Of a DNA stretch of 64,000 nucleotides, positions 524-62,779 are shown one piece after another (position 1 is the stretch's first letter; every line of letters starts with the position of its first letter). Source of the DNA: Deltaproteobacteria bacterium. GTDB taxonomy: Bacteria > Myxococcota_A > UBA9042 > PHBI01. Under the pieces are notes generated by a model. It did not search any database and had not been told where the DNA came from. It saw nothing but the letters and a program-made list of their open reading frames with translations. The position numbers and the translations under genes were made by a program. Location of the stretch: assembly GCA_020632715.1 (NCBI GenBank), contig JACKFA010000010.1:15328-79327 (forward strand). The letters run 5' to 3'.

Positions 524-2638
<2,115 letters not shown>

Positions 2639-2642
<4 letters not shown>

Positions 2643-8717: not shown

Positions 8718-8830
8718 GCGCTCGCCACACGAGAATTTGGCTCCAGAGGGGACAAATTTGGCACCTGTTGCTTGACCCGGCCACGGCGGTCTGGTTCCCT
8801 GGGATCGCACCACGTGACCTGGAGGCCCGG

Positions 8831-21780: not shown

Positions 21781-23349
21781 ATGCCCCAGCTGAACCCCAG
21801 CGATCCGCTCGCGAAGGACGTCGAGGCCGTGGCGCGCCTCGCGGTCGTCCCGACGCTCCTGCGCGTCGTCGCGGAGTCGACCGGCCTCCGGTTCACCGCC
21901 GTCGCCCGGGTGACGCGCGAGCAGTGGGTCGCCTGCGCCGTCCACGACGAGCTCGGCCTCGGCCTCGCGCCCGGCGACACGCTCGACGTCGCGACGACGC
22001 TCTGCGCCCAGGTCAGAGACCTCCGCGCGCCCATCGCCATCGACCACGCGAGCGCGGACCCGGTCTATTGCGGCCACCCGTCGCCGAGGCGCCTCGGCTT
22101 CGAGAGCTACGTGGCGGTCCCGATCTTCCTGTCCGATGGCGCCTGGTTCGGCACCATCTTCGGCCTGGACACCGAGCCGAAGGCCGTCGACCGGCCGCCG
22201 GTCATCGCGCAGGTCCAGCTCCACGCGGAGCTCGTCGCGTGCGCGCTCGACCTCGGCGGGCGCGAGAGCCTGGCGCGCGCCGGGCAGCGCCGCCTCGAGT
22301 CGTTCGTGAAGGGCGCGCCGCTCGCCATCGCCGTGTTCCGCGGGCCCGACCTCGTCTACGACATGGTGAACGACAGCTACGCCGAGCTCATCGGGCACCG
22401 CGAGGTCGTCGGGCGCGCGGGGCGCGAGGTCTTCCCCGACCTGCGGCACGCCATCTGGGACGAGCTCGACCGCGTGTACGCCACGGGCGAGCCGCGCTAC
22501 GCGCCGGCGACCCCGTCGGAGGCCGCGGCGCGCCAGAACCCGGCCGCGCCCACGCGCTACTTCGACTGGGTGGCGCAGCCGACGCGCGGGGCCGACGGCG
22601 CCATCGACGGCGTGATCTTCTTCGCGACGGACGTGACCGACAAGGTCGAGGCGCACCGCGCGCTCGAGCGCCGGAACCGCGAGCTCGACGGCTTCGCGGC
22701 GATCGCGTCGCACGACCTGAAGACGCCGCTGCGCGGGATCATGCACCTCGCGCAGTGGGTCCGGGAGGACCTCGGCGACGCCGTGAGCGCGGAGGTCGCG
22801 GGGCACCTCGAGCAGATGCGCGAGCGCGCCGCGCAGATGAGCGCGCTCATCGACGGCCTCCTCGAGTACGCCCGCGCCGGCGACGTCCGCGAGACGCTCG
22901 CCGACATCGACGTGGGCGCGCTCCTCGGCGAGGTGGTCGCGCTCTTGCCGATCCCGGCCGAGGCGCGGGTCGAGGTGGGGCCGATGCCCACGCTCCACGG
23001 CTCGCCGGTCGCGCTGCAGCAGGTCTTCCACAACCTCGTCGGCAACGCGCTCGTCCACGCCGGGAGGCCTGACCCGACCATCGCCGTCACGGCCGAGGAG
23101 GACGCTGGCGCCTGGATCTTCGCGGTCGAGGACGACGGGCGCGGCGTGCCGGTCGAGCACCGGGAGCGGATCTGGAAGCTCTTCGAGTCGCTCGCCGCGA
23201 AGGAGCGCGGGAACACCGGCCTCGGGCTCGCCATCGTGCGGAAGGTGGTCGAGGTCCGCGGGGGGCGGGTGTCGGTCGAGACGGGCGCCCGCGGGGGCGC
23301 CCGCTTCGCGTTCAGCTGGCCGAAGCGCGAGCCGCGGTCGGAGGGCTGA
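21781..23349 (+). CDS. Cytoplasmic sensor histidine kinase (GAF-PAS-HisKA-HATPase_c)
   Basis: H-box FAAIASHDLKTPLRGI, N-box FHNLVGNALVH and G-box NTGLGLAIVRKVVEVRGG. N-terminal GAF-like and PAS-like segments. No TM segment seen. Confidence 0.85.
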   Translation: MPQLNPSDPLAKDVEAVARLAVVPTLLRVVAESTGLRFTAVARVTREQWVACAVHDELGLGLAPGDTLDVATTLCAQVRDLRAPIAIDHASADPVYCGHPSPRRLGFESYVAVPIFLSDGAWFGTIFGLDTEPKAVDRPPVIAQVQLHAELVACALDLGGRESLARAGQRRLESFVKGAPLAIAVFRGPDLVYDMVNDSYAELIGHREVVGRAGREVFPDLRHAIWDELDRVYATGEPRYAPATPSEAAARQNPAAPTRYFDWVAQPTRGADGAIDGVIFFATDVTDKVEAHRALERRNRELDGFAAIASHDLKTPLRGIMHLAQWVREDLGDAVSAEVAGHLEQMRERAAQMSALIDGLLEYARAGDVRETLADIDVGALLGEVVALLPIPAEARVEVGPMPTLHGSPVALQQVFHNLVGNALVHAGRPDPTIAVTAEEDAGAWIFAVEDDGRGVPVEHRERIWKLFESLAAKERGNTGLGLAIVRKVVEVRGGRVSVETGARGGARFAFSWPKREPRSEG

Positions 23350-37589: not shown

Positions 37590-37604
37590 GCAACTTCCAT
37601 GCCA
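37590..37604 (-). promoter_or_regulatory. Sigma54 -24/-12 promoter TGGCATGGAAGTTGC for fliM-fliN-fliR-flhB
   Basis: The reverse complement of 37590-37604 matches TGGCACG-N4-TTGC at 14 of 15 defined positions with the correct GG-N10-GC spacing. It is followed by GGAGG and GTG 37561. Confidence 0.75.
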
Positions 37605-37667: not shown

Positions 37668-38723
37668 TCAGGCGTCGCCGCCGAGCGACGCCGCCTCGTA
37701 GGCCTCCTCCGTGAAGTCGCCGGTGATCGGCCGCCGCCGCAGCTTCTCGACGAGGGTCGTGCGGTTCAGGCCGAGGAGGTTCGCGGCGCGCGAGCGGTTG
37801 CCGTTCGCGCGGCACAGGGCCTCGCGGATGAGGTCGCGCTCGAGGCGATCGAGGGTGTCCTTCAGGACGAGGCCGCTCTCGGGCAGCTCGATGACGGGCG
37901 GGCCGCTCGCGGCGCCGGCGCGCGCGGGCGGGACGGCGCCGCGCTGCGAGAGCTTCCAGCGCACGTCGTCGCGGTCGATGAAGCCCTCCTCGCGGAGGAC
38001 GAGCACGCTCTGCACGACGTTCTCGAGCTCGCGGACGTTGCCGGGCCAGGTGTAGCGCTCGAGCTCGGCCATCGCCTCGTCGGTGAAGCCGTCGGCGTCG
38101 GAGTGGTTGGGGCCCGCGTGGAGCGCGAGGAAGTGGCGTGCGAGGGGCGCGATGTCCATCGGGCGGTCGCGCAGCGCCGGGAGCTCGATGCGGATGACGT
38201 CGAGGCGGAAGAAGAGGTCCTCGCGGAAGCGGCCGGCCTCGACGGCGGCGGGGAGATCGACGTTCGTCGCGGCGATGACGCGGAAGTTGGCGCGCTTCGG
38301 CTGCGAGCCGCCGAGCGGGGTGAAGGTCTTCTCCTGGAGGACGCGCAGGAGCTTCGGCTGGAGCTCGATCGGGAGCTCGCCGATCTCGTCGAGGAAGAGG
38401 GTGCCGCCGTCGGCGGCCTCGAGGCGGCCGACGCGGGTGCGGTCGGCGCCGGTGAAGGCGCCGCGGACGTGGCCGAAGAGCTCGCTCTCGAGGAGGTTCG
38501 CGGGGATGGCGCCGCAGTTGATGGCGACGAGGGGCCCGTCCGACCAGGGGCCGAGCGCGTGGATCCGGTGGACCACGTTCTCCTTGCCGGTGCCGCTCTC
38601 GCCGACGATGAGCGCCGGGACCGGGCTCCGGGCGACGCGCTCGAGGGAGCGCAGCACGGCCTGGAGCGGCGAGTCGGGGGCGCACACGATGTCGCGCAGC
38701 GGCGCGTCGAGTGGATGCGTCAT
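37668..38723 (-). CDS. Sigma54-dependent transcriptional activator (AAA+ plus Fis-type HTH), no N-terminal receiver or sensory domain
   Basis: Walker A GESGTGKE, GAFTGA loop ELFGHVRGAFTGA, Walker B LFLDEIGE, WPGNVRELEN, and C-terminal HTH NRSRAANLLGLNRTTLVEKL. The AAA+ core begins around residue 15. Confidence 0.9.
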   Translation of the reverse strand: MTHPLDAPLRDIVCAPDSPLQAVLRSLERVARSPVPALIVGESGTGKENVVHRIHALGPWSDGPLVAINCGAIPANLLESELFGHVRGAFTGADRTRVGRLEAADGGTLFLDEIGELPIELQPKLLRVLQEKTFTPLGGSQPKRANFRVIAATNVDLPAAVEAGRFREDLFFRLDVIRIELPALRDRPMDIAPLARHFLALHAGPNHSDADGFTDEAMAELERYTWPGNVRELENVVQSVLVLREEGFIDRDDVRWKLSQRGAVPPARAGAASGPPVIELPESGLVLKDTLDRLERDLIREALCRANGNRSRAANLLGLNRTTLVEKLRRRPITGDFTEEAYEAASLGGDA

Positions 38724-38875
38724 GGGGCGTCCGTCACGGGGGTCGAAGGGCCGCCGATCCGCATGGGCGGGGCGACAGCGATCGCTCGCATCGTTTCCGC
38801 GATCAGCCGCACCGTCAAAAATCGAGATCGGGTGTCAGGAAACCGGCACCCCGGGGCCGACTCGCGATCGTCAAC

Positions 38876-38928
38876 GCGCTGACGCCGGCTTCCCAGGCTC
38901 GTCAGCGCGTTGACGATCCGCGGGATAC
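38876..38928. promoter_or_regulatory. Perfect 19-bp inverted repeat GATCGTCAACGCGCTGACG-N15-CGTCAGCGCGTTGACGATC between the two divergent activator genes
   Basis: Read directly from the sequence. Both flanking genes diverge from it, so it is not a terminator. It lies 75-130 nt upstream of the sigma54-like element at 39003. Confidence 0.6.
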
Positions 38929-38983
38929 AAAAAGGCGATTACAGAACTTAACAAACCCTCAAGCCCTCACGTCGGCGCGCCGA

Positions 38984-40048
38984 ATGACGTCTCTCGGGGC
39001 CTTGGCACGCAACGTGCTCAGCGCACCCCTCGGACCTATGCGCCCAGAGCTCTCCCAGCGCCTCCCCGGAGGCAACGACACCGCAGAGGACGTGCTTCTC
39101 GATCCGCGAAGCGCCGCCATGCGGACCGTCATGCACCTCGCCCGCGAGGTCGCGAAGGGCGGCACGTCCGTCCTCCTCACGGGCGAGACCGGCACCGGCA
39201 AGGAGGTCCTCGCCCGCTACGTCCACGCCTGCTCGCCGCGCGCGAAGCGGCCGTTCGTCGCGCTCAACTGCGGCGCGCTGCCTGCGCAGCTCGTCGAGAG
39301 CGAGCTCTTCGGCCACGAGCGCGGCGCCTTCTCGGGCGCCATCGAGCGGCGCGTCGGCTACTTCGAGGCGGCGCACACGGGCACGCTCCTCCTCGACGAG
39401 GTGAGCGAGCTCCCGCAGGCGCTCCAGACGCGGCTCCTGCGCGTCCTCCAGGAGCGGCAGATCCAGCGCGTCGGCGCGAGCCGCCCGATCGACGTCGACG
39501 TGCGCGTCGTCGCCACGACGAACCGCGATCTGCGCGCCATGGTCGAGGCCGGCGAGTTCCGGAAGGACCTCTTCTATCGCCTGAACGTCTTCCCGATCGA
39601 GGTCCCGCCGCTGCGCGCGCGCAAGGACGACCTCGACGACCTCGTCGCGACCCTCCTCGGGCGCCTGCGACCGGGCCAGGATCCGCTCCCGGACCTCACC
39701 CTCGCGGCCCGCGAGCGCCTCCGTCGCCACGACTTCCCGGGCAACGTGCGCGAGCTCGCCAACCTCCTCGAGCGCGCGCTGATCCTCACGGGGGGCGACG
39801 GCCCGATCGACGCCGCGCACCTCCTGCTCGAGCCGCTCGCCGCCCCGGAGGACGCCGCGCCGCACGCCGGCGCGACCCTCGAGCACCTCGAGCGGCGGCA
39901 GATCCTCCGCGTCCTGTCGGACTGCGGCGGCAACCGCACCCACGCGTCGCGGCGGCTCGGGATCAGCCTCCGCACGCTCCGGAACAAGCTCCGCGACTAC
40001 CGCCACCACGGCGTCCCGATCCCCGAGGCCGCCGGCTCCGCGCGCTGA
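38984..40048 (+). CDS. Second sigma54-dependent activator (AAA+ plus HTH), no receiver domain; the start may be ATG 39038
   Basis: Walker A GETGTGKE, ELFGHERGAFSGA, LLLDEVSE, FPGNVRELAN, and HTH NRTHASRRLGISLRTLRNKL. Only about 30-45 residues precede the AAA+ core. Confidence 0.85.
   Translation: MTSLGALARNVLSAPLGPMRPELSQRLPGGNDTAEDVLLDPRSAAMRTVMHLAREVAKGGTSVLLTGETGTGKEVLARYVHACSPRAKRPFVALNCGALPAQLVESELFGHERGAFSGAIERRVGYFEAAHTGTLLLDEVSELPQALQTRLLRVLQERQIQRVGASRPIDVDVRVVATTNRDLRAMVEAGEFRKDLFYRLNVFPIEVPPLRARKDDLDDLVATLLGRLRPGQDPLPDLTLAARERLRRHDFPGNVRELANLLERALILTGGDGPIDAAHLLLEPLAAPEDAAPHAGATLEHLERRQILRVLSDCGGNRTHASRRLGISLRTLRNKLRDYRHHGVPIPEAAGSAR
39003..39017 (+). promoter_or_regulatory. Candidate sigma54 promoter TGGCACGCAACGTGC
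   Basis: Perfect -24 TGGCACG and correct GG-N10-GC spacing, with -12 GTGC rather than TTGC. It lies inside the 5' end of the longest ORF of the downstream activator, 21 nt before the in-frame ATG 39038. Confidence 0.35.
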
Positions 40049-40088
40049 CGCGCGGCGCCGGGAACAGAGAGAGAGAGAAGAGGCCGTC

Positions 40089-49616: not shown

Positions 49617-50897
49617 ATGAGCATCTTCTCGTCGCTCTACGTCGGCATGTCGGGCATGCGCACCAACGAAGGCGCGATCAGCGTCATCGGCAACAACATC
49701 GCCAACGTGAACACGGTCGGCTTCAAGGCGAGCCGCGCGGTCTTCGCGGACATCCTGAGCCAGACGATCCTCGGCTCGGCCGGCGCGACGCAGCAGGGGC
49801 AGGGCGCCGCGCTCGCCGCGGTGCAGCGCCTGGTCACCCAGGGGGCGCTGCTCGGGACGAACGTCACGACGGACCTCGCCATCAACGGCGACGGCTACTT
49901 CATCGTCGGCGAGGACCCGGGCGGCCACCAGTACACGCGCAACGGGCAGCTCCAGATCGACGAGAACGGCTACCTGACGACGGTCGAGGGGCTGCGCCTC
50001 CAGGGGTACGCGGCGACGGACGGCGTGCTCGCGACGCGCCTCTCGAGCCTCGAGGTCAACAGTATCCAGGCGCCGCCGCTCGCGACGACCGAGATCGCGA
50101 TGGACGTGCAGCTGAACCGCGCCGACTTCGAGCCGCTGAACGCCGTCTTCGACGTCAACGACCCCGAGGGGACCTCGCAGTACCAGCAGTCGATCACGGT
50201 CTACGACTCGCTCGGCGAGGCGCATCAGGTCGAGGTCTACTTCACGCAGACGTCGCCCGGTCAGTGGGAGTGGAACGCGGTGGTCCCGCAGGGCGACATC
50301 GACGGGACCGACACCCGGGACGGCACGGTGGTCGCGGCCGGGTCGCTGGTCTTCGACGAGCAGGGGAACCTGCAGACGGAGAACCAGAGCCAGTCGACGG
50401 TGCAGTTCTTCGGCGCGGCGCCGCAGGACCTCACGTTCGACTTCGGCGAGGCCATCGACGACGGCGGCGACGGCTCGGGCTCCTCGTCCTACGCGGCCAC
50501 GAGCTCGCTCAACTTCGTGAACCAGAACGGCTACGGGGTGGGCACGCTCAGCTACCTCGAGATCGACCCCGACGGGAACATCACGGGGACGTTCACGAAC
50601 GGCCGCGAGCAGCTCCTCGGGCGCCTCGCGCTCGCGCGCTTCCAGGCGCCGGACCAGCTGAACGCCCTCGGCGACAACCTCTTCGCGGAGAGCGAGATGA
50701 GCGGCGAGCCGATCATCGGCGTCGCCAACACGGGCGGGCGCGGGGAGATCTTCAGCGGCGCCCTCGAGCAGAGCACCGTCGACCTCACGAACGAGTTCAC
50801 GCAGCTCATCACGGCGCAGCGCGGCTTCCAGGCGGCGAGCCGCACGATCACGACGGCCGACGAGATGCTCGTCGAGGTCGTGAACTTGAAGCGGTAG
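49617..50897 (+). CDS. flgE: Flagellar hook protein FlgE
   Basis: N-terminus MSIFSSLYVGMSGMRTNEGAISVIGNNIANVNTVGFK and C-terminus LEQSTVDLTNEFTQLITAQRGFQAASRTITTADEML. Confidence 0.93.
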   Translation: MSIFSSLYVGMSGMRTNEGAISVIGNNIANVNTVGFKASRAVFADILSQTILGSAGATQQGQGAALAAVQRLVTQGALLGTNVTTDLAINGDGYFIVGEDPGGHQYTRNGQLQIDENGYLTTVEGLRLQGYAATDGVLATRLSSLEVNSIQAPPLATTEIAMDVQLNRADFEPLNAVFDVNDPEGTSQYQQSITVYDSLGEAHQVEVYFTQTSPGQWEWNAVVPQGDIDGTDTRDGTVVAAGSLVFDEQGNLQTENQSQSTVQFFGAAPQDLTFDFGEAIDDGGDGSGSSSYAATSSLNFVNQNGYGVGTLSYLEIDPDGNITGTFTNGREQLLGRLALARFQAPDQLNALGDNLFAESEMSGEPIIGVANTGGRGEIFSGALEQSTVDLTNEFTQLITAQRGFQAASRTITTADEMLVEVVNLKR

Positions 50898-51162
50898 TCG
50901 CGGTCGGGGGCGCGACGGCGCGGCTCCGTGACGCGAGGCGGGCGGCGGCCCGCCCGCGCCGTCCGCGGCCCGCGCGCCGGAGGACGCCATGAACCCCGAT
51001 CAGTTCGTCGCGCTCTTGCTCGCCGAGGTTCCGGAGCTCGCCCCCACCGCGCGCGAGCACCTGAACGACTACGACGGGGGCTCGGCGCCCGCGCTCCGCG
51101 CTCGACATCCGCGCCGCCCGAGGGCATTCTCATGGCACGTCGGTCCGAAGGGAGTGTCCTCG

Positions 51163-51717
51163 ATGAGTCACAACGAGAGAGTTGCGCCTTCCCAGCGCGC
51201 CGCGCAGGCCCCTGCGGCCGCGGCCTCCGACGTCGCCCCGAGCGCGGGCGTCCAGCTCAAGCGCTCCATGGCGGGCATGGACTTCGCGGCGCAGGAGGCG
51301 GCGCTCGCGCCCGTCCAGCGCCACGGCGGCGGCGACGGCACCGCGGGCGTGCACGAGGCGGCCGCGGCCGGCATCGCCTCGGGCGGCGGCGCGATGCCGC
51401 ACGCGGACACGATCCAGAAGGCCTTCGGCTCGCACGACATCTCGGGCGTCCAGGCCCACACGGGGAGCCAGGCGTCCGAGGCCAGCAAGGCCATGGGCGC
51501 CGAGGCGTACGCGACCGGCAACCACGTCGTCTTCGGCAGCGCCCCCGACCTCCACACCGCGGCGCACGAGGCCGCGCACGTCGTGCAGCAGCGCGACGGC
51601 GTCTCGCTCGCGGGCGGCGTCGGCAAGGCGGGCGACTCCTACGAGCAGCACGCCGACAAGGTCGCCGACGCGGTCGTCGCCGGGAAGTCCGCCGAGGGCC
51701 TCCTCTCGCAGAAGTAG
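51163..51717 (+). CDS. DUF4157-family protein (HExxH-containing domain often found at the N-termini of toxins or eCIS-associated proteins)
   Basis: [43 protein letters not shown]...[16 protein letters not shown]-like GAAGGGAG lies upstream of ATG 51163, which is internal to ORF 50989..51717. Confidence 0.75.
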
Positions 51718-52101
51718 CGCCCGCGCGCGTAGCCGGGGGCGGGTTGCTCCACGGAACCCGCCGTGCCCCGTACCTCCCTGGTCGTCCCGTCTCGGGCCTC
51801 GACCCCGCGGCGACCGACCGAGCACCCGACGCGGTGCCGCGCGGTCGCGACGCCGTGGTGCGCGCGGAAGTTGCTGAGATCACGGGGCAACCGCCCCGCG
51901 CAGCGCGATCGTCAGGGCGTGACGCCACCTGTACCGGGGCGCATCGCCCCACCCCCTGAGCGGATCGCCCCCCGCTGCCCCACCGTCGGGTCGGACCCCG
52001 CCACCGATCCGTGAGCGCGCGCCCGCTCGCGCGCGTCGCGTGCGCCTCGGGGGCCCTTCGTGGGCGAGCGCGGAAACCCTTTTGTATCCGAGGGGCTCGC
52101 G

Positions 52102-52116
52102 TGGAATGGAGGTTGC
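52102..52116 (+). promoter_or_regulatory. Sigma54-type promoter TGGAATGGAGGTTGC
   Basis: Correct GG-N10-GC spacing and a TTGC -12 element. It lies 134 nt upstream of ATG 52250. Its core closely resembles the fliM promoter (TGGCATGGAAGTTGC). Confidence 0.55.
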
Positions 52117-52249
52117 AGCCGAGGGGCGCGGTCGCCGCGGAGCTCTCCGCGTCGGCTCTCACCCTGCCCCTGGGGCGACGTCGCGTGCGGCTTTGGCGAG
52201 CGGACACGCGGCACCACCGCTCCCAAACCTGCATCAAGCGAGGAAACCC

Positions 52250-53614
52250 ATGCGAAGCATTCGCCTTGGCACATCCGTCGTGTCGGCCGCGGCCATTCTG
52301 GCCTGTGGCGCGCTCGCGAGCTGTGCGAACGACGCCACACCGAACGACCCCACCACCACCGACCAGCCCGCCGTCGTACCTGACGTGACCTCCCTCGGGC
52401 TCCGCTTCGACGTCGTCGGCGACACCGAGACCTCGTGCGGCAACGCTGCGGGCGTCCACGTCTCCATCGCGATGGGCGAGGACACGCAGGAGTGCACGGC
52501 CATGTGGGCCGACGCCACCATCAGCGACCCGTACACCGGGGACGCGGCGGACGACGGCGCTCACCACGTCGCCGACTGCTTCTTCGTGCTCTCACCCGGC
52601 GAGTGGAGCATCACCGACGTGAGCGCCATCGGCGACGATGGCGAGCCGCTCGAGTGCTGCGAGAGCGACTGGCCGTCGAAGGCCCTCGTCAGCGAGGGGA
52701 GCACGCGCGAGATCGGCGTGCCGATCTCCTGCGACGTCGTCGGTAGCGGCGCGCTCGACATCTACGGCTGGCTCAACCTGCCGCCCTACATCACGAACCT
52801 GACCATCAGCCCGTCGAAGTTCGTGACCCCCTGCTACCCGATCGCGCTCGATGTCGAGGCGACGGACGTCGAGGGTGACGCGCTCAGCTACGACTGGATG
52901 GTCACCGACTCCCCGGACGGCGCGGACTACCTCCTCGACGAGGACGGCGCCCACGCCGACTTCGCCGCCGACACCGAGGGCGACTACACGCTCGCCGTCA
53001 CCGTCACCGACGGCCCGCACGGCGAGGTCGCGAGCCTCGAGTTCCCGATCCACGTGAGCGGCGAGCCCGACCCGCAGTGCGACCTCGGCGGCCCGCTCGC
53101 GGCGCTCCAGGTGCAGATGGTCGACGACGCCGATCCCGTCACGGCCGGCGCCGACGTCCACATGAGCTCGATCCTCTACAACGAGGACGACTCCGGTGAG
53201 TCCCTGACCGACATCGCCGTCGACTTCAGCTTCGGCGCGCCGGTCGTCACCCCGCCCATGAGCGGCTTCTTCACGCCGGCGGACACCGAGGTCCTCTACG
53301 ACCCCGATCCGAACGTCAACACGACGACCGGCCAGGTGACCGGTACGCCCAGCGGCAGCGCCTACGCGCTCGTCGAGGGCACCGACTACGACGTCGTCGC
53401 GACGAGCACCGGCATGCAGCAGCTCGCGTTCCACGTCGATCTCGCGGCCGACGCCGCGATCATCGTGAACCACACGCTCGACACGGGCTCGGCGACCCCG
53501 CCCGACGACTACGACAGCTCCGCCGTCTGGACCGCCAACGGGATGGACACCGGTGAGGCGTACAGCGCGCTCACCGGCGAGAGCACGACCGTGGAGGTGG
53601 AGGCCCCGTTCTGA
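52250..53614 (+). CDS. Lipoprotein, paralog 1: Cys-rich N-domain, Ig/PKD-like domain, and a ~190-aa C-terminal extension
   Basis: SD GAGGAA. Lipobox AAAILACGALASC. About 55-60 % identical by eye to the 54188 product over about 250 aa, including 7 conserved Cys and ISPSKF...DYTLAVTVTD. Confidence 0.75.
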   Translation: MRSIRLGTSVVSAAAILACGALASCANDATPNDPTTTDQPAVVPDVTSLGLRFDVVGDTETSCGNAAGVHVSIAMGEDTQECTAMWADATISDPYTGDAADDGAHHVADCFFVLSPGEWSITDVSAIGDDGEPLECCESDWPSKALVSEGSTREIGVPISCDVVGSGALDIYGWLNLPPYITNLTISPSKFVTPCYPIALDVEATDVEGDALSYDWMVTDSPDGADYLLDEDGAHADFAADTEGDYTLAVTVTDGPHGEVASLEFPIHVSGEPDPQCDLGGPLAALQVQMVDDADPVTAGADVHMSSILYNEDDSGESLTDIAVDFSFGAPVVTPPMSGFFTPADTEVLYDPDPNVNTTTGQVTGTPSGSAYALVEGTDYDVVATSTGMQQLAFHVDLAADAAIIVNHTLDTGSATPPDDYDSSAVWTANGMDTGEAYSALTGESTTVEVEAPF

Positions 53615-53952
53615 TCCGACAGCGGGACGGAGCGGACGCACCACCGCGTGCTGGCGGCCCAGGCCGCCGGCGACGTGGTGGGCGATGAAGAAGGAGCGCG
53701 GACCGGCCACGACTTTTGGCGAGCGGATGACCGGCCCGCGCCCCTGGTTGCATCAAGCAAACCCACGACGAGTATAATGACGAAGCCCATCTTTGGTTAC
53801 CAATTTGTCTCCGGCGCGAAGGCGATGATGTCACTCGACATCGCGCCCGACGCGGAGAATGCCTGGCATATCGGCGCGGCGCTCGACGCCGCGGCGACGC
53901 CCGCTCGGCGTCACGGCTCCGCTTCCGCTGCGGACTCGACGCCGGTGGCGAG

Positions 53953-54006
53953 CCAGGTCTCGCGACGAATCGCCCCAGGCCAGGTCGATCGCGACGATTC
54001 GCCCCA
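53953..54006 (+). repeat. Direct repeat CCAGGTC(N1-3)TCGCGACGAWTCGCCCCA x2 (27-bp period); a third TCGCGACGGA copy at 54027
   Basis: Read directly from the sequence. It lies 40-110 nt upstream of the sigma54 promoter at 54064. Confidence 0.7.
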
Positions 54007-54063
54007 CCTCCTCGCGCGCCCCGAGTGTCGCGACGGAAGTGCCACGCGGGCGTCTGCGGCACA

Positions 54064-54078
54064 TGGCACGGCGATTGC
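54064..54078 (+). promoter_or_regulatory. Consensus sigma54 promoter TGGCACGGCGATTGC
   Basis: Exact match to TGGCACG-N4-TTGC. It lies 110 nt upstream of GTG 54188. Confidence 0.75.
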
Positions 54079-54187
54079 GACACGGGAATTGGTCGCCGGA
54101 CAGGCGACGGGAGCGACGACGGGGACTTTGGCGAGTGGCCCGACGACGCTCCGGACAGCATCAACGAACCCAACAGGAGAACTCTCA

Positions 54188-55084
54188 GTGAACACCACGG
54201 GATTGAAAAAGACACTTCTCGGCCTCGGCGCCCTCGCGCTGGCCACCCCGTTCTTCGGCGCCTGCGCGGACGCGGTCGCCAACGACCCCTCGACCACCGA
54301 CCTCACACCCGACAGCTCCGTGATGGCGCTCCGCTTCGAGTCCATCGGTGAGACCCAGACCGCGTGCGGCGAGGCCGCGGGCATCCGTGTGGAGATCGCC
54401 CCCGCCGACGACGCGTCGGCGACCCAGAGCTGTGAGGCCTACTGGGCCCCCGCCACGGTGAGCGACCCCTACACGGGCGACGCCGCGGATGACGGCGAGC
54501 ACATGGTCGCCGACTGCTTCTTCGTGCTCGAGCCGGGCACCTACGACATCCAGTCCGTCGAGGTCATCGGCAACGAGGGCGACGCGCTCGAGTGCTGCGA
54601 CGCCGACTACCCGGCCACGGCCGACGTGACGGAGGGCGAGACGACCGAGTTCGGCGCCGAGCTCTCGTGTGACGTGATCGGCAGCGGCGCGCTCGACGTG
54701 TACGGGTGGCTGAACCGCGCCCCGGTGGTCATGCAGATGACCATCTCGCCGTCGAAGTTCGCCGAGACGTGCGGCCTCATCCAGGTCGACGCCCAGGCCG
54801 AGGATCCCGAGGGTGACACGGTCATGTATGACTGGGAGGTGACCTACGCCCCGGACGGCGCGACGTACACCGCCGACAGCGACGGCAGCACCTTCTTCTT
54901 CGCCGCCACGGCGATGGGCGACTACGGGGTCACCCTGACGGTGTCGGACGAGCATGGCGAGTCGACGTCGCTCTCCTTCCCGCTCCACGTCACGAGCGAG
55001 GGTGAGGGCGACTGCACTGGCGACATCACCGGTGGGCTCGTCCAGGACGCGCTCGACGCGCTCGGCCTCGGTGACGGTGGCTGA
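54188..55084 (+). CDS. Lipoprotein, paralog 2: Cys-rich N-domain plus Ig/PKD-like domain
   Basis: SD AGGAGA lies 7 nt before GTG. Lipobox LALATPFFGAC. Collinear with paralog 1 (VADCFFVL, LECC, VIGSGALDVYGWLN, ISPSKF). Confidence 0.75.
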   Translation: MNTTGLKKTLLGLGALALATPFFGACADAVANDPSTTDLTPDSSVMALRFESIGETQTACGEAAGIRVEIAPADDASATQSCEAYWAPATVSDPYTGDAADDGEHMVADCFFVLEPGTYDIQSVEVIGNEGDALECCDADYPATADVTEGETTEFGAELSCDVIGSGALDVYGWLNRAPVVMQMTISPSKFAETCGLIQVDAQAEDPEGDTVMYDWEVTYAPDGATYTADSDGSTFFFAATAMGDYGVTLTVSDEHGESTSLSFPLHVTSEGEGDCTGDITGGLVQDALDALGLGDGG

Positions 55085-55110
55085 TGCCTGAACGATGACG
55101 ACCTCTGCAG

Positions 55111-55136
55111 GGCCTGGAGCGCGCGCGCTCCGGGCC
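55111..55136 (+). terminator. GC-rich hairpin (13-bp arms, one G-U pair) followed by TTGCTCGTT
   Basis: GGCCTGGAGCGCG/CGCGCTCCGGGCC palindrome 27 nt after the paralog-2 stop. Confidence 0.45.
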
Positions 55137-55197
55137 TTGCTCGTTCCGGAGCCCGACGACCGGACACCCCGCGCGCGCAGAACGACCGGAGCCCCAC

Positions 55198-55650
55198 GTG
55201 ACCGAATCCAACCTGAACCGCCGCACCCTCCTCGTGCTCGCAGCCGCGGCGGCGAGCTTCCTCATCCTCTCGGGCCTCGCCTTCGGCGACGCGGGCGGCC
55301 CGCTCGCGGCGCCGCCGGCCGACGAGCCCGCCCCGCCGCGCATCGTCGACGTGGACATCGCGCCGTCGAAGTTCACGCGGGCCTGCCAGGTCGTGACGCT
55401 GACGGCGCGCGCGACGGATCCGAACGGCGACGACGTCGCGTACGCCTGGGCGGTCGTGCCGGCGGCGGGCGCGGCGCTCGGCGCGGACGGGGCGCGCGTG
55501 CGCTTCGCGGCCGATCGCGCCGGGGACTACACGGTCCGCGTGACGACGCGCGACGACGGCGGGCGCAGCGCGTCGCTCGCGATCCCGCTCCACGTGACGG
55601 GGCCGGCGGGCGCGTGCGACCCGGCGGCGCTCGTCGGCGACGAGGACTGA
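55198..55650 (+). CDS. Secreted protein, paralog 3: the Ig/PKD-like domain only
   Basis: GTG start. Hydrophobic N-terminus LLVLAAAAASFLILSGLAFG. IAPSKFTRACQVVTLTARATDPNGDDVAYAW...GDYTVRVTTRDDGGRSASLAIPLHV matches the Ig-like module of paralogs 1 and 2. Confidence 0.6.
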   Translation: MTESNLNRRTLLVLAAAAASFLILSGLAFGDAGGPLAAPPADEPAPPRIVDVDIAPSKFTRACQVVTLTARATDPNGDDVAYAWAVVPAAGAALGADGARVRFAADRAGDYTVRVTTRDDGGRSASLAIPLHVTGPAGACDPAALVGDED

Positions 55651-55689
55651 CGACCGCCGCGCCGCTCCGGGCCCCAACTACGGTGCGCT

Positions 55690-55711
55690 TCATCCTCCAT
55701 TTGGAGGATGA
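55690..55711 (+). terminator. Hairpin TCATCCTCCA-TT-TGGAGGATGA
   Basis: Perfect 10-bp inverted repeat 40 nt after the stop at 55650. There is no U-tract. Confidence 0.35.
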
Positions 55712-55920
55712 CCGCTCGAGCGTAGCGGCGAAGATGGTGGCGTGCGGTGACGCACCCAGTCCGGGGCATCGGCTGCGCACACTGCGCAAGTGCATGGCCG
55801 ATGCCCTGGGCCCGCGTCGCAGGGCGCACCGAACGCGGGGCGAGGGCGGGCCGACTGCGGCGACCGGGCGCGAGCCTCTCGCGGGCCGTCACGAGCCGAG
55901 CGTCGGCGACGTTTCCACGA

Positions 55921-55935
55921 CGGGCCGGACGTTGC
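55921..55935 (+). promoter_or_regulatory. Weak sigma54-like element CGGGCCGGACGTTGC(AT)
   Basis: GG and TTGC are at the correct spacing, but the -24 region is degenerate. It lies 45 nt upstream of ATG 55980. Confidence 0.25.
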
Positions 55936-55979
55936 ATACTCGACCGCAGGCGGCGCAGGACGGCCGCGGCGGAGGGGCG

Positions 55980-56324
55980 ATGACGGCGCGGTTCTTCCTG
56001 GGCGCGATGGCGGTGGTGGCGGGGCTCGTGGCGGCGGCGTGCGGCACGGCGGGCAGCGCGGGCGGCGGCGGGGCCGGCGAGCGGACGCTCACCGACGCCG
56101 AGCTCGACAGCGTCTGCTGGGAGGCGGCGACGCGCGCGAACTGCGCGATCACGACGTCCGCCGAGGGCGATCACACGAAGTCGTGCGAGTGCGCCGGGGT
56201 CGCGCGCGGCGACAACGCGCTGATGACGCTCAGCGGGACGTCGGCCGTCGGGCAGCCCATCGAGGAGCCCTTCGATCTGCGCTGGGACGGCACGGCGTGG
56301 CAGCTCGTCGAGCCTCAGGAGTAG
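55980..56324 (+). CDS. Small hypothetical lipoprotein (114 aa)
   Basis: SD GGAGGGG. Lipobox AVVAGLVAAAC. GC3-rich codons. Confidence 0.6.
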   Translation: MTARFFLGAMAVVAGLVAAACGTAGSAGGGGAGERTLTDAELDSVCWEAATRANCAITTSAEGDHTKSCECAGVARGDNALMTLSGTSAVGQPIEEPFDLRWDGTAWQLVEPQE

Positions 56325-56344
56325 CGCACACGGCGTCGCGCGGG

Positions 56345-57080
56345 CCACGCCGCGAGAGCGCACCGAGCGCCGTAGCGACCGCCTCCGACCAGCTCGCGAT
56401 GTCGCTCGCGTGGCCGGGCGTCGCCGCCGCGATCGCCGCGAGGAGCCGCTCCGCGCCGACGGCCTCGCGCGCCTCCCAGAGCGCGCCGCTCACGACCTGC
56501 GCGTCGGCGTGGGCGTCGCCCTGGAGCGCGTCCGGGCACGCGCCGCCGCCGGCGATGGAGCGCGCGTCGTCGGTGGTCGCGGAGGCCGTCAGGATCGGCG
56601 TCTCGAGCCGCGCCGCCGCGATGAAGTCGGCGACGCCCTCCTGGAGCATCGCGGCCTGCCCGTCGGCGTGGCCGTCGACGAGGCGCCAGCGTGGGCTCGC
56701 GTCGCCGGCCGCCCGGAGCGAGGCGTGGACGAGCTCGTGCGTGAGCACCGCGTCCCCGTCGGCCCCCGGCGCGAGCAGGACGCCCGCGCGCCCCGCCGAG
56801 GCCGGCGCCGCCGGATGACGTCGAAGCGCTCGCCGTCGAAGCGCGCGAGGCCGTCGTAGGTGGCGACCCAGATGAAGCCGGCGTCGTCGCGGGCGAGGTC
56901 GGTGACGTGGTCGAGCGGGAGGCCGTCCTCGAGGTGGCTCCAGTGGTCGACGAGGAGGTCGTCGACGAGGGCCGGGGCGGTCTCGCGGGCGCGGGCCGGC
57001 GCGGCGCTCGCGAGCGTGGCGAGCGCGAGCGTGGCGGCGGCGAGCGCCGAGGTCAGGCGGGAGAGGTGGCGGGCGTTCAC
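56345..57080 (-). pseudogene. Mosaic or frameshifted remnant: a signal peptide and one Reg_prop-like blade (frame A) joined out of frame to an HExxH metalloprotease C-terminal fragment (frame B)
   Basis: Frame A reads VNARHLSRLTSALAAATLALATLASAAPARA...DHVTDLARDDAGFIWVATYDGLARFDGERFDV. After about 56820, protein-like sequence continues only in another frame: AGVLLAPGADGDAVLTHELVHASL...MLQEGVADFIAA...GDAHADAQVVSGALWEA. Both pieces are far shorter than their families. Confidence 0.45.
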
Positions 57081-59005: not shown

Positions 59006-62000
59006 TCAGGGGCGGACGACCGCGGCGGGATCGGCCTCGCGGTCGGTCTTGACCGTGGCGAACGCGGCGCCGCCGATCACGACGAGCGACGTGCCCTCCA
59101 TCCGGTGCGCGGTCTCGGGGTCCGCGCTCGTCTCCTCGCGGAGCCGGAGCGTGACGCCGTGGCGGACGCGGAAGGTGGCGTCGACGGTGACGGAGCGGAT
59201 CTCGTAGGGGGCCGCGACCCCGTCGACCGTGACGCTGCCGGTGTTGCCGCTGACGGCGACCCAGGAGATGGCGACGTTCTCGAGCGGGGTGTCGGTGGCG
59301 GCGTCCTCCTCGCGGTCGCCGCGCGCGTCGAAGCCGTCGCGCGTGATGTCGACGACGCGCCCGGCGACCGCCGCGTCGTCGCCCACGCTGCCTAGCAGCA
59401 CCTCCGGCTTCTTCTCGAGGCGCGGGGTCCCGAAGGAGATCGTCGAGGCCGCGCCGGTCGCGGCCAGCAGGCCCGCGCCGGCGGCCCAGACGCTCCCGTC
59501 GCGGCGCTGGAAGCGGCCCGTCTCCATCGCCAGGAACGTCACGGTCTCCGCCCCGTGAGCGCCCAGGGACGCAGGCCATGACTGGATCCGCGCCTCGAAG
59601 CCGCCCCCCGAGACGCCGCTCACCTGCACGATCGCCGGCGTCGGGTCCGTGCTCGTCGGGAGCCCGGGGATGATGACCGGCGCCGCGAGAGCGTGGGGAA
59701 GGGCGATGGGCCGCCACGTGCTGTCGACGACGGCGGTGACGAGCTGGATCCCGCTCCCGACCACGGTGACCGTCTCGGTGTGGGTGGCGACGGTGCCGTC
59801 GCCGTCGGTGACGGTGCCGGTCACGCTCCACGCGCCCGGGTACGGGAAGACCACCGTCGCCGTCGGCCCGGTGAGCGACCCCGGGAGCCCGGCGATGGTC
59901 CAGACGACGCTCGTGACGCCGTCGTAGGCGGTCGAGGCGTCGGAGAGGTCGAGCTCCAGGTCGTAGCCGTTGCCGGCGCTCGTGAACGCGACGGCGGGGC
60001 CGGTGTCCGCGACGGTGACGACGTGCGTCGCCGTCGCGACGTGGCTCGCCGCGTCGGTGACCGTGAGCGTGGCGGTGTAGGTGCCGTGGCTCGCGTAGAT
60101 GTGCGACGCGACGGCCCCGGTCGCGCTCCCGCCGTCCCCGAAGTCCCAGACGTACGTCAGCGCCCCCGGCGTGCCGCTCGTCCCGGCGCCCCAGAACGCG
60201 AGGGCGACCCCCTCGGCGACGCCCGCGGCCGCCGTGATGGCGGCGGTCGGCGGGGCGACGGGGCGGTCGCGGACCTCGACCGTGCGCGCGTCCGTCGAGT
60301 CGACTCCGTTGCACGTGTCGTGCGCCGTCAGCGTCACGTGGTACGTCCCGGGCGCCGCCGCGACCACCTCGATGAAGAAGGCGCTCACGTCGTAGTCGAC
60401 GGCGAGCCCGTCGAGGCCCCACGTCACCTCGAAGCAGGCATTGTCGAAGGCGTCCGACCCCGCCGCGGTCGTCGTGAGCCCGAACGCGAGCCTGTCCCCC
60501 GTGAACGCGCGCACGTGGTGGTGTGGAGGCCGCATCACCGCGAGGAGCTCGTCCGCGCACGCGTCGCCGACGCCGTCGCCGTCCTCGTCGAGCTGGTCCG
60601 GGTTCGCGGCGGCGAGGCAGTTGTCGACCCCGTCGACGACGCCGTCGCCGTCGCTGTCGAGCCCGAAGGACGTCGCCGGCCAGCACCCGTCCGTGGCGTC
60701 CCTCGGGCACGGGTCCGCGCCGTCGAGCTCGCCGTCGTCGTCCGTGTCGCCGTCGAGCGGATCGGTCGCGCGCGCCGCCGGCCCCGCGAGCTCCACCCGC
60801 TGCGCCGCGCCGTCGCCGTCCACGTCCCCCGCCGGGTCGAGCAGCGCGTCCCAGGTCGCCCCCGGGATTTGTGCGATGCGAAGCGCGCCAAAGTAAGCAA
60901 CCAGGCGCCCGGCGAGGCGCGAGGTCTCCAGATTGCTGCGTTGCAACAAGCGCAGCGCGAGCTCCACGTCGTAGGTCGCGGCCGGGAGCGGCGTCTGCGC
61001 TCCCCATGCCGTCGCGCCAGCGAGCGCGGCCGCCTCGAGCGCAGCCGCCTCCGCCCGGAGCCCGGCGAGCGCCGCGTCGCTCGTGTTCCCGAGCAGGAGC
61101 GCGAGCTCGTCGGCGAGGTCGCCCAGGCCCTCCCAGCCCGCGCGCGGCGACGCCCCGGCGGCCGTCGTCTTGCGCGTGTAGTCGTCGGCGAGCGCGCGGA
61201 ACGCGTCGCGGCTCTGCGCGCCGCTGCCCTCGGGCGTCATGGCGACCGCGCCGTCCTCCCCGGCGTACCAGGCCGCGAGCGCGTCGAGCTCCGCCAGCGC
61301 CGCCGTCGACGCCGGCGAGACCGTGATCTCCCGCGCCACCGACAGCCGCTCCGCGAAGAGCGCCCGCGCGCCGCTGAGCCACTCCTGAGCCGTCCCGTGC
61401 GCGCGCCCGGTCGCGACGAGCGCGGCCGTCACGTCCTCCGGGCGGAAGCTCGGCACGATGCGGGTCATCCCGGACACCGTCCACGGCGCGCTCGTCCAGC
61501 CGCCGGCGCCGAGCGCCCCGCTCCGGACGCGCACCACCACCGGCGACTCCGCCGCGAACCGCGCCCCCATCGCTTCCGAGAGCGTGAACGCCGCCACCGT
61601 CGCGGACGACGACGCGTTCACCGCGCCCACCGGCGCCAGGCCGTAGCTATCACGCGCCACGACGAAGGCGCCGCCGAGGTCGCGTACCTCGAGCGCCCCC
61701 TCGCCCGCGGGGACGCCGCTCGCCGCGAGCCCCGTGCGCGCGGTGACGGCGGCGATGAGCTCGCCACCGTAGCGCGATCCGGCGGCCGGGAAGCTCTCCG
61801 CGTCCTCCTCGTCCGTGTGGCGCCAGAACTCGTCCTCGTCGGCCCAGCCGTCGCCGTCCATGTCGCGCGGCACGCAGACCCGCTGGTCCGTGTTCCGGGG
61901 ATCCACCGTGCAGCTGCACTTGGGCCACGAGCTCACCTCGGCGGGCCCGACCGCCGTCACCGGGCAGCCGCGCAGGAGCTCGTCGATGTTGGGCCAGCCG

Positions 62001-62779
62001 TCGCCGTCGGTGTCGGTGAGCGCGTCCTGGCGGTCGGGGTCGAGCCCCGCGAGCGCCTCGACCGGGTCCGGGATCCCGTCGCCGTCGCGGTCGGCGAGCT
62101 CGTCCGGGAGGTGGAGCGTGTAGGTGACCGTCGCCGTGGTGGAGTCGGGGTTCGTGCTCCCCGCCTGGCCGCGCGCGGCCCAGACGAAGACCTCGATGGC
62201 CTGGGTCTTGGCGGCGCCGTTCAGGAGCACGCGCCGCTCGCGCACCGGCGTCGGCGCGCTCCCGACGCCGTCGACCACGACCTGGAGCCCGACGGCGCCG
62301 CCCGTCCCGCCCGTCGCGCGCACCGTGATCTCGAGCGGCCCGGTGTAGTCGCCGGGGGGCGGGTCGAAGACGATCGCGAGCGGCTCGATCGCGGTGGGAT
62401 TGGGGTCCGTGGGCAAGTCGAGCGGCACGACCGAGAACGCCGGCACCTTTGCGCCCGACGGCGTCGGCCAGCTCCCGAGCCCGCGCTCGACGAGCACCAT
62501 CGCCGTCGTCGGCACGCCCGCGAGCGCCGTGAACGTCGCGCTCGCGACCTCCCCCCAGCCGACCTGGAGCGCGTCGAGGTCCTGTCGGACCACGAGCGTC
62601 CGCGACCCGTCGCCCACGCGCCACGTCGTCGTGACGACGCCCTCCGTGCCGACGACGTTGGCGTTCGCGTGGTCGAGCACGGGGTTCGGCTCGCCGTCGG
62701 CGCGCGCGACGCCGCCCGCGCCGAGCGCCAGGGCCAGGACCAGGGCGACGCCGCCCATCAACGCGTTGCGTCCGTTCAT
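59006..62779 (-). CDS. Large secreted surface protein with thrombospondin type-3-like Ca-binding repeats and PKD domains
   Basis: Signal peptide GGVALVLALALGAGGVARA. TSP3-like DRDGDGIPDPVE, DTDGDGWPNIDE, DMDGDGWADEDE and DSDGDGVVDGVDNCLAAANPDQLDEDGDGVGDAC. PKD signature YVWDFGDGGSATGAVASHIYASHGTYTATLTVTD. Confidence 0.8.
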   Translation of the reverse strand: MNGRNALMGGVALVLALALGAGGVARADGEPNPVLDHANANVVGTEGVVTTTWRVGDGSRTLVVRQDLDALQVGWGEVASATFTALAGVPTTAMVLVERGLGSWPTPSGAKVPAFSVVPLDLPTDPNPTAIEPLAIVFDPPPGDYTGPLEITVRATGGTGGAVGLQVVVDGVGSAPTPVRERRVLLNGAAKTQAIEVFVWAARGQAGSTNPDSTTATVTYTLHLPDELADRDGDGIPDPVEALAGLDPDRQDALTDTDGDGWPNIDELLRGCPVTAVGPAEVSSWPKCSCTVDPRNTDQRVCVPRDMDGDGWADEDEFWRHTDEEDAESFPAAGSRYGGELIAAVTARTGLAASGVPAGEGALEVRDLGGAFVVARDSYGLAPVGAVNASSSATVAAFTLSEAMGARFAAESPVVVRVRSGALGAGGWTSAPWTVSGMTRIVPSFRPEDVTAALVATGRAHGTAQEWLSGARALFAERLSVAREITVSPASTAALAELDALAAWYAGEDGAVAMTPEGSGAQSRDAFRALADDYTRKTTAAGASPRAGWEGLGDLADELALLLGNTSDAALAGLRAEAAALEAAALAGATAWGAQTPLPAATYDVELALRLLQRSNLETSRLAGRLVAYFGALRIAQIPGATWDALLDPAGDVDGDGAAQRVELAGPAARATDPLDGDTDDDGELDGADPCPRDATDGCWPATSFGLDSDGDGVVDGVDNCLAAANPDQLDEDGDGVGDACADELLAVMRPPHHHVRAFTGDRLAFGLTTTAAGSDAFDNACFEVTWGLDGLAVDYDVSAFFIEVVAAAPGTYHVTLTAHDTCNGVDSTDARTVEVRDRPVAPPTAAITAAAGVAEGVALAFWGAGTSGTPGALTYVWDFGDGGSATGAVASHIYASHGTYTATLTVTDAASHVATATHVVTVADTGPAVAFTSAGNGYDLELDLSDASTAYDGVTSVVWTIAGLPGSLTGPTATVVFPYPGAWSVTGTVTDGDGTVATHTETVTVVGSGIQLVTAVVDSTWRPIALPHALAAPVIIPGLPTSTDPTPAIVQVSGVSGGGFEARIQSWPASLGAHGAETVTFLAMETGRFQRRDGSVWAAGAGLLAATGAASTISFGTPRLEKKPEVLLGSVGDDAAVAGRVVDITRDGFDARGDREEDAATDTPLENVAISWVAVSGNTGSVTVDGVAAPYEIRSVTVDATFRVRHGVTLRLREETSADPETAHRMEGTSLVVIGGAAFATVKTDREADPAAVVRP

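Follow-up and report, generated by a model that had tools for sequence, protein, structure and literature searches.

Two genes for exported lipoproteins, here called A (52250-53614, plus strand) and B (54188-55084, plus strand), lie just past the flagellar genes in a 64-kb stretch of contig JACKFA010000010.1 from a Deltaproteobacteria bacterium (the window, G+C content of 74%), and each is preceded by a motif of the -24/-12 type recognized by sigma-54 RNA polymerase. The question raised by this locus is whether A and B are new members of the flagellar regulon, as the original prediction proposed. The part of that interpretation that held is the presence of sigma-54 promoters in front of both lipoprotein genes, while membership of the flagellar regulon was not borne out. 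We consider it probable, from the comparison of related loci, that A and B are separately transcribed sigma-54-dependent genes of a Myxococcota surface-lipoprotein family which carry an ancestral promoter that is not specifically flagellar.

The motif of A, TGGAATGGAGGTTGC, was found at 52102-52116, 134 nt 5' of the ATG at 52250, and the motif of B, TGGCACGGCGATTGC, at 54064-54078, 110 nt 5' of the GTG at 54188, where it matches the consensus exactly; these positions and distances agree with those first proposed, and the motif TGGCATGGAAGTTGC of fliM, used as a comparator, was recovered on the minus strand (37604-37590). Both lipoprotein motifs are intergenic and on the coding strand, with 134 and 110 nt between the GC of the -12 box and the start codon, and in both of them the GG and GC dinucleotides are exactly 10 nt apart. 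The B motif is the sole exact TGGCAC-N5-TTGC of the window, and the A motif reads TGGAAT-N5-TTGCA. Scored with our own, approximate sigma-54 weight matrix, the promoter of A (TGGAATGGAGGTTGCA, 52102-52117, plus strand) reached 19.0 bits, the best value in the window, and that of B (TGGCACGGCGATTGCG, 54064-54079, plus strand) reached 15.5 bits. Transcription is predicted to start near 52128 for A and near 54090 for B, which would give 5' untranslated regions of about 122 and 98 nt, respectively. Five sites of at least 14 bits were present in the window for 0.28 expected, and the top three among intergenic, co-oriented sites were those of A, fliM (16.0 bits) and B, in this order. These three are also the only matches in the 64 kb to TGG[CA]A[CT]-N5-[AT]TGC, a consensus composed after the hits were seen.

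The promoters were then compared with those of a close relative, represented by the Logan assemblies L001-L010, in which the order fliG...flgE-A-B is kept and the B ortholog is 81% identical. Coding DNA is 80-85% identical between the window and L001 (80% for A, whose ortholog is the protein P0003) and neutral intergenic DNA only 49-58%. The 16-mer TGGAATGGAGGTTGCA of A is nevertheless identical at positions 7931-7946 of L001, within flanks that are merely 49-57% identical. The B promoter of L001 reads TGGCACGCGGCTTGCG, in which TGGCAC and TTGC are kept and the spacer is changed from GGCGA to GCGGC.

More distant members of the family were collected with a profile of its specific N-terminal domain (N-domain), which recovered 36 relatives, nearly all of about 290 amino acids (aa); those with a name come from metagenome-assembled genomes (MAGs) of Myxococcota or 'Deltaproteobacteria'. 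A scan of a genome collection found two family loci, both already in the set, and a scan of metagenomes found five. Of seven independent distant loci, six have a strong motif in the coding orientation 78-257 nt ahead of the start codon (TGGCATGGCGCATGC, TGGCATGCGCGTTGC, TGGCACGCCCGATGC, TGGAACGGCGCTTGC, TGGCACGAGCGATGC and TGGAATGGTCGATGC); the scores are 12.8-17.1 bits, and the background rate is about 0.02 per 450 nt. When a plain degenerate consensus was used instead, the same six were the sole matches across 276,000 strand-positions (about 138 kb). TGGAAY variants precede the homologues L016 and L026, and the Myxococcota MAG GCA_046351155.1 carries two unlinked paralogues, L013 and L026, each with its own motif (TGGCATGCGCGTTGC and TGGAATGGTCGATGC, respectively). 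Because the promoter is conserved in L001 and precedes six of the seven distant homologues, these results indicate that it is an ancestral, conserved trait of the lipoprotein gene family.

The same data bear on whether the motifs arose by chance in intergenic DNA rich in GC, the genes being transcribed from other promoters. Such a view could draw on the loose consensus (up to two mismatches), which is not enriched in the window (30 matches for 36.4 expected), on the -24 box of A, TGGAAT, which differs from TGGCAC at two positions, and on sites of similar score in coding DNA, at 39003 (according to the listing of open reading frames, ORFs) and antisense at 53418. However, the 39003 site proved to be intergenic once the start of the adjacent gene was corrected (see below), and the 53418 site (53418-53433, minus strand, within gene A, 14.8 bits) is not conserved in L001. 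No sigma-70-like promoter was found by a scan of the region, the TTGCAT-N19-TATAAT between the two genes having too long a spacer. With both motifs retained in L001 amid diverged flanks, and with the recurrence before distant homologues against a background of zero in 138 kb, coincidence is very improbable, and the A and B motifs are almost certainly functional sigma-54 promoters. The antisense match at 53418, and another with one mismatch at 54030-54044 (minus strand) just 5' of the B promoter, are probably due to chance. A terminator scan of the region returned nothing useful.

The two genes had been described as paralogous lipoprotein genes, and this was confirmed: A and B are 51% identical across their common N-domain and PKD domain, and their lipoboxes (...ALASC in A, ...FFGAC in B) contain a cysteine that is nearly invariant in an alignment of 38 sequences. 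The A protein (454 aa) consists of the lipobox LASC, the Cys-rich N-domain, a PKD-like domain and, at the C-terminus, an additional domain of about 180 aa. The B protein (298 aa) consists of the lipobox FGAC, the Cys-rich N-domain and a PKD domain, which is the commonest architecture of the family. A start of B further upstream, at the ATG at 53777, was rejected, since the frame that it shares with B in the window is lost in L001, where the corresponding distance is 400 nt. Searches of Pfam and NCBIfam with A and B gave PKD-type matches only. B lies at the threshold of the Pfam models PKD_4 (27.2 bits, cut-off 27) and PKD (23.5 bits, cut-off 23.5), and A falls under the Pfam cut-offs yet can be aligned. 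The AlphaFold model of B (pLDDT 79) shows two beta-sandwich domains; searched at full length against the Protein Data Bank (PDB) with Foldseek, it matched generic Ig or PKD folds, and it superposes on the PKD domains of the collagenases ColG and ColH with TM-scores of 0.79-0.83 relative to the target. The N-domain (about 140 aa, Cys-rich) had no match in Pfam, NCBIfam or the PDB, and a fold search with this domain alone was not significant. We conclude that the N-domain is a new, previously undescribed Cys-rich beta-sandwich and that the family would be one of small surface lipoproteins restricted to Myxococcota, with a lipobox, a Cys-rich beta-sandwich and a PKD domain.

Part of the N-domain is also found in about 450 more remote representatives, where it is joined to CARDB, MopE-type motifs or PKD, which are typical modules of secreted proteins. 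In the proteins P0173-P0306, the C-terminal two-thirds of the N-domain (HxVADCFF...CC...GALD...PSKF) was seen within longer polypeptides of variable length, some representatives of this type also having MopE-type metal-binding motifs or CARDB. This wider set looks like an undescribed domain superfamily.

Downstream of B, gene C (55198-55650, plus strand) encodes 150 aa with a signal or transmembrane segment and the same type of PKD domain, here scored at 26.1 bits by the Pfam PKD model, and without the N-domain. It is absent from L001. No weight-matrix site of at least 10 bits was found in 55085-55980, and C, which thus lacks its own sigma-54 motif, may be co-transcribed with B. A perfect inverted repeat 3' of C (CATCCTCCA-TT-TGGAGGATG, 55691-55710) may mark the end of such a B-C transcript.

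Do A and B nevertheless answer to the flagellar activators? The flagellar cluster contains flhB, fliR, fliN, fliM and the gene for the sigma-54 activator EBP1 (37668-38723) on the minus strand, and a second activator gene, EBP2, followed by flgBC-fliE-fliFGHIJK-flgD-flgE (ending at 50897) on the plus strand. EBP1 and EBP2 were confirmed to be the sole sigma-54 activators of the window, from which flagellar co-regulation of A and B had been argued. That argument is weak: the window is a 64-kb piece of a large myxobacterial genome, and the fact has little weight because M. xanthus is reported to have 53 sigma-54 activators and because exterior components, including lipoproteins, are commonly under sigma-54 control (PMC3162934). 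Both activators consist of an AAA+ domain, a lid and a helix-turn-helix only, without receiver or other N-terminal sensory domain. A similar receiver-less pair (6408-7460 and 7774-8730) is present in the flagellar cluster L029 of another MAG, GCA_020849745.1, and the occurrence of two such activators within one flagellar cluster is unusual. The best NCBIfam match of EBP2, under the cut-off, is Caulobacter FlbD.

The over-extended start of EBP2 in the ORF listing was ruled out, as the L029 ortholog has 318 aa and homology in the window begins at 39089. The corrected gene extends from about 39089 to 40048 (plus strand), and the site at 39003, in the divergent EBP1/EBP2 region (38724-39095), is therefore intergenic. 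It belongs to what appears to be the flagellar cluster's own sigma-54 promoter region (38870-39018, plus strand, ahead of EBP2), which contains two enhancer boxes, GTCAACGCGCTGAC (38870) and GTCAGCGCGTTGAC (38901), both of them GTCA-N6-TGAC palindromes, followed by an AT-rich stretch with GGATACAAAAAG (38923) and then by the sigma-54 motif TGGCACGCAACGTGCT (39003). The comparison of this region was made with L029, the contigs of the L001 lineage ending inside EBP2, and the layout of boxes, AT-rich stretch and sigma-54 motif is kept there at 7522-7607. The FleQ box has been given as GTCaNTAAAtTGAC (PMC6120874), which the boxes GTCAACGCGCTGAC and GTCAGCGCGTTGAC resemble. From this arrangement, the long EBP2-flgB...flgE operon would itself seem to depend on sigma-54. 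The fliM motif TGGCATGGAAGTTGC (37590-37604, minus strand) is also well placed, after the EBP1 stop codon and before a Shine-Dalgarno sequence (SD, GAGGAGG) and a GTG start near 37561; it has no counterpart in L029, where EBP1 and fliM overlap.

The distribution of the family leans against a flagellar role. The flgE-A-B arrangement was seen nowhere but in the window and the L001 lineage. At the seven distant loci, neither a flagellar gene nor a sigma-54 activator lies within 10 kb, and their neighbourhoods are mutually unrelated; the promoter, which had been taken to imply flagellar co-regulation, thus goes with the family also at loci away from flagellar genes. Family and flagellar genes were found together in one MAG, GCA_020849745.1, the only one for which the hit list and accession blocks were informative, and there the family member (L014) and the flagellar cluster are on different contigs. 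The L029 cluster has the same EBP1-fliM and EBP2-flg layout, with a hybrid histidine kinase gene after flgE, and in a second flagellated relative, L028 (FliF 61% identical), flgE is followed by other genes and no family gene was present; a family gene thus follows flgE in none of the two other flagellated relatives examined. No FliF from a 9.29-Mb chromosome that carries a family member was among the best 120 FliF relatives, which is suggestive only.

Enhancer content gave a similar picture. GTCA-N6-TGAC occurs four times in the window, at 38870, at 38901, at 40086 where flgB begins, and within the B coding sequence; no family gene has it upstream, be it A, B or a homologue, L014 of the flagellated MAG included. 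The only words common to the flagellar promoter regions and the A/B regions are GGATACAAAA and CGCGATCGTCA, the latter being part of a degenerate GTCA-N5-TGAC variant discussed below. Scans with the integration host factor consensus found no site in the promoter regions examined.

Several observations speak against an ancestral, non-flagellar promoter of A and B. The adjacency of flgE, A and B is kept in two genomes though both flanks differ, the DUF4157 gene that separates flgE from A in the window being absent from L001 and the genes after B being unrelated. An AT-rich element abutting the -24 box of A (CCTTTTGTATCC, 52078-52090, plus strand; CTTTGTGTATCC in L001) is the reverse complement of GGATACAAAAGG, which is limited in the window to the A promoter and to position 38923 of the EBP1/EBP2 promoter region (two matches for 0.15 expected, with a pattern picked post hoc). 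The degenerate box GTCAGGGCGTGAC (GTCA-N5-TGAC, at 51911) lies 191 nt 5' of the A promoter. A k-mer search for an enhancer shared by the upstream regions of the family returned GC-rich low-complexity words only, rpoN is not in the window, and the homologue L027 has no sigma-54 motif. CTTTGTG islands similar to CCTTTTGTATCC also occur upstream in L026 and L016. The N5 box was rejected as an enhancer, since L001 does not conserve it and 0-4 chance matches are found in the window for each spacing of this kind.

The adjacency, the shared GGATACAAAAGG element and the N5 box are the points that would make A and B late members of the flagellar regulon under EBP1 or EBP2, encoding envelope or basal-body accessory lipoproteins of the myxobacterial flagellum. 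This proposal gains from the promoter class, which is the same as that of fliM and of the EBP2-flg operon, from the one MAG with an unlinked family member that is flagellated, and from the precedent of the accessory genes flgOP and flgT, which are RpoN-dependent in V. cholerae (PMC3439928). Yet the linkage is missing at all seven other loci and in both other flagellated relatives, the GTCA-N6-TGAC box is missing upstream of the family genes, and neither A nor B resembles any flagellar component in sequence or fold (Pfam, NCBIfam, Foldseek against the PDB), so that a role as envelope or basal-body accessories is not supported. The flagellar-regulon reading is positional only, and family distribution, enhancer content and protein similarity lend it no support; overall the evidence leans against it, and we regard it as rather unlikely. 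That EBP1 or EBP2 activates A and B appears equally doubtful. The position of the two genes beside flgE looks like a lineage-specific placement.

A feature overlooked in the original prediction is a hairpin common to the leaders of A and B, of which a third, orphan copy lies between the genes. Two conserved boxes define it, box1 (CTTTGGCGAG(C/T)GG) and box2 (GCATCAA), the latter 19-27 nt downstream and just before the SD. The window has three near-exact copies of box1, all at the A-B locus, all on the plus strand and all kept in L001. In the predicted fold, box1 forms the apex, N-CUU[UGGC]GAG-N', on a lower stem that differs for each copy. Copy A (52180-52212, plus strand) has the lower stem CGCGUG/CACGCG and the apex G-CUU[UGGC]GAG-C, with box1 CTTTGGCGAGCGG at 52191-52203. 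It is situated inside a block of 49 nt with 98% identity to L001. After it come box2 GCATCAAG and the SD GAGGAA of gene A (52231-52249, plus strand), which are conserved in L001 as well as in copies B and mid. Copy B (54110-54152, plus strand) has the stems GGAGCG/CGCUCC and CGGG/CCCG and the apex A-CUU[UGGC]GAG-U, with box1 CTTTGGCGAGTGG at 54126-54138, and is followed by box2 GCATCAAC and AACCCAACAGGAG (SD) of gene B (54158-54187, plus strand). A similar sequence, AACCCAACAACCAGGAG, precedes the L016 homologue. The mid copy (53680-53781, plus strand) contains a hairpin at 53692-53745, box1 TTTTGGCGAGCGG at 53714-53726, box2 GCATCAAG and a TATAATG end, with no sigma-54 motif upstream and no gene after it; it is 88% identical to L001, with a core near 100%.

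All six copies (three per species in two species) fold alike, and the hairpin blocks are 88-98% identical between species, where neutral spacer DNA reaches 49-58%. Copy A is closed by a G:C pair and copy B by A:U, the mid copy shows one compensatory exchange from C:G to U:A between species, and the lower stem of copy B re-forms in L001 although its 46 nt differ by 12 substitutions, among them a change from A.A to C:G. Some results weaken the case for a structured RNA. The folding energies in this GC-rich DNA mostly do not surpass those of shuffled sequences (z-scores of -0.6 to -2.0, save for -4.1 for the mid copy of L001), the covariation comes from two species and three paralogous copies and is thus thin, and the mid copy has no obvious promoter to transcribe it. 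Box1 is missing from the distant homologues, and the covariance models of Rfam gave no relevant match in 51700-56400 at E-values up to 1. A 30-codon ORF within the mid copy (53685-53777, plus strand; 9509-9601 in L001) has conserved start and stop codons and was considered as a gene. All nine of its differing codons are non-synonymous, its core is identical at third positions, its codon usage is atypical and box1 and box2 stand in different frames across the copies; it is probably non-coding.

The conserved block might instead act as DNA, box1 and box2 being an enhancer or operator downstream of the sigma-54 start sites, bound by a FlbD- or FlrC-like activator or by a repressor, and the mid copy would serve B from upstream. 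A core of 10-13 nt identical in all copies is typical of a protein-binding site, the mid copy lacks an upstream promoter and a hairpin past the A stop codon may end the A transcript before it, and EBP2 has FlbD as its best NCBIfam match. FlbD, through ftr elements, and V. cholerae FlrC (the latter attributed to Correa and Klose, 2005) can reportedly work when bound downstream of the transcription start. Against this, the core has no DNA dyad and the stem requires a U:G pair, which only RNA forms; the inverted repeats that flank the core differ wholly between copies yet remain complementary, with compensatory changes, which would be unexpected for a duplex DNA site; the spacing of box1 and box2 varies (27, 23 and 19 nt); and box1 is not present at the flagellar promoters and leaders of the window. 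We thus somewhat favour an RNA-level element, and a DNA site, including an upstream role of the mid copy for B, is possible but not likely.

Other elements surround the mid copy. The GC-rich hairpin just past the A stop codon (GGCGGCC..GGCCGCC, 53643-53658, plus strand), which may mark the end of the A transcript, has no T-tract and was not flagged by the terminator scan; another hairpin occupies its place in L001. An AT-rich island, TGGTTACCAATTTGT (53794-53808, plus strand), about 260 nt 5' of the B promoter, is identical in L001 and unique in the window even with up to three mismatches, and L013 has a similar island, TGGTTGTGGAACTTGG, upstream of its promoter. It is possibly a protein-binding or DNA-bending site. 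A second island, GCCTGGCATATCGGC (53861-53875, plus strand), is also identical in L001 and at the same distance from the mid block, and both islands keep their exact spacing within otherwise scrambled spacer DNA. RNAalifold gave a weak result on 53782-53900, with two sequences only.

Taken together, these results suggest the following scheme for A and B as sigma-54-dependent genes of a surface-lipoprotein family. At the promoters of A (TGGAAT-N5-TTGC) and B (TGGCAC-N5-TTGC), sigma-54 RNA polymerase would wait in a closed complex for an enhancer-binding ATPase to open it, and the resulting mRNAs would have leaders of about 100-120 nt; the data offer no particular ground for choosing the two flagellar activators for this step. 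The hairpin apex CUU[UGGC]GAG, followed by GCAUCAA before the ribosome-binding site, could then be recognized in the RNA by a factor common to both mRNAs, which would tune their translation or stability. A variant of this scheme, in which flagellated Myxococcota of this lineage recruited A and B as flagellar envelope accessories, a receiver-less flagellar activator fires the sigma-54 promoter, a factor reading the leader hairpin couples translation to flagellar assembly and the third hairpin copy is an orphan or a decoy, seems quite improbable.

The remaining genes of the locus were also catalogued. Downstream of flgE, the order is the DUF4157/eCIS_core gene (50989-51717, plus strand, between flgE and A), A, B, C and the small lipoprotein gene D (55980-56324, plus strand). 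A homologue of the DUF4157 gene (57% identical over 106 aa) adjoins flhB in L029 (2352-2669, minus strand), at the opposite end of the cluster. Elsewhere, the window encodes a CheA-like hybrid kinase with HATPase_c, CheW and receiver domains (807-2642, plus strand), a GAF-PAS histidine kinase (21781-23349, plus strand) and a 1257-aa surface protein with PKD (59006-62779, minus strand).

These observations provide a well-supported candidate sigma-54 target for a phylum that has dozens of activators and few known targets, and they illustrate that proximity to a flagellar cluster can be misleading when genes are assigned to a regulon. The conserved promoter of the family offers a handle toward finding the cognate activator, and the leader hairpin, present in three copies, is a candidate for a new cis-regulatory RNA motif. 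Flagellar assembly genes have been reported from uncultured Myxococcota (bioRxiv 10.1101/2021.07.06.451402), and the corrected layout of the flagellar master promoter, with its FleQ-like boxes and two receiver-less activators, could be a starting point for the study of these little-known flagella.

Among known systems, the flagellar hierarchies of Pseudomonas (FleQ-FleR), Vibrio (FlrA-FlrC) and Caulobacter (FlbD) use promoters of the same -24/-12 class as A and B, which lie at the edge of a flagellar cluster encoding two sigma-54 activators, and the promoter of that cluster shares with them FleQ-like palindromes, an AT-rich stretch and a -24/-12 motif (PMC6120874). They differ in that A and B have no FleQ-like boxes, that the family is unlinked elsewhere and that both window activators lack receiver domains. 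The accessory proteins FlgO, FlgP, FlgT and MotX/Y of Vibrio and PflA/B of Campylobacter are, like A and B, envelope proteins encoded near flagellar genes, but A and B are unlike them in sequence, domain and fold, and their linkage is not conserved.

Late flagellar genes can also be controlled through their leader RNA, as are fljK by FlbT in Caulobacter and hag by CsrA-FliW in Bacillus. A and B likewise have a predicted structured 5' leader just before the ribosome-binding site and lie near flagellar genes, but their leader sequence is unrelated, the loop has no GGA motif and there was no Rfam match. No gene for FlbT, FlaF, CsrA or FliW was found in the window. With PKD-domain surface proteins, the family shares the C-terminal domain of B, which is at the threshold of the PKD models and superposes on the collagenase PKD domains; it departs from them by the preceding matchless Cys-rich domain and by A, which remains under the Pfam cut-offs.

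A further likeness is with the control of the bacterial exterior by sigma-54 (Francke et al. 2011, PMC3162934), of which the Rrp2-RpoN pathway of Borrelia, as cited there, is an example that involves lipoproteins. As in that scheme, A and B are exported lipoprotein genes with a sigma-54 promoter, in a host from an activator-rich phylum. The difference is that the promoter is here conserved through a protein family and not through a pathway, and that the family and its N-domain were undescribed. By this comparison, A and B represent a sigma-54-driven family of exterior lipoprotein genes, which would be of a kind already known.

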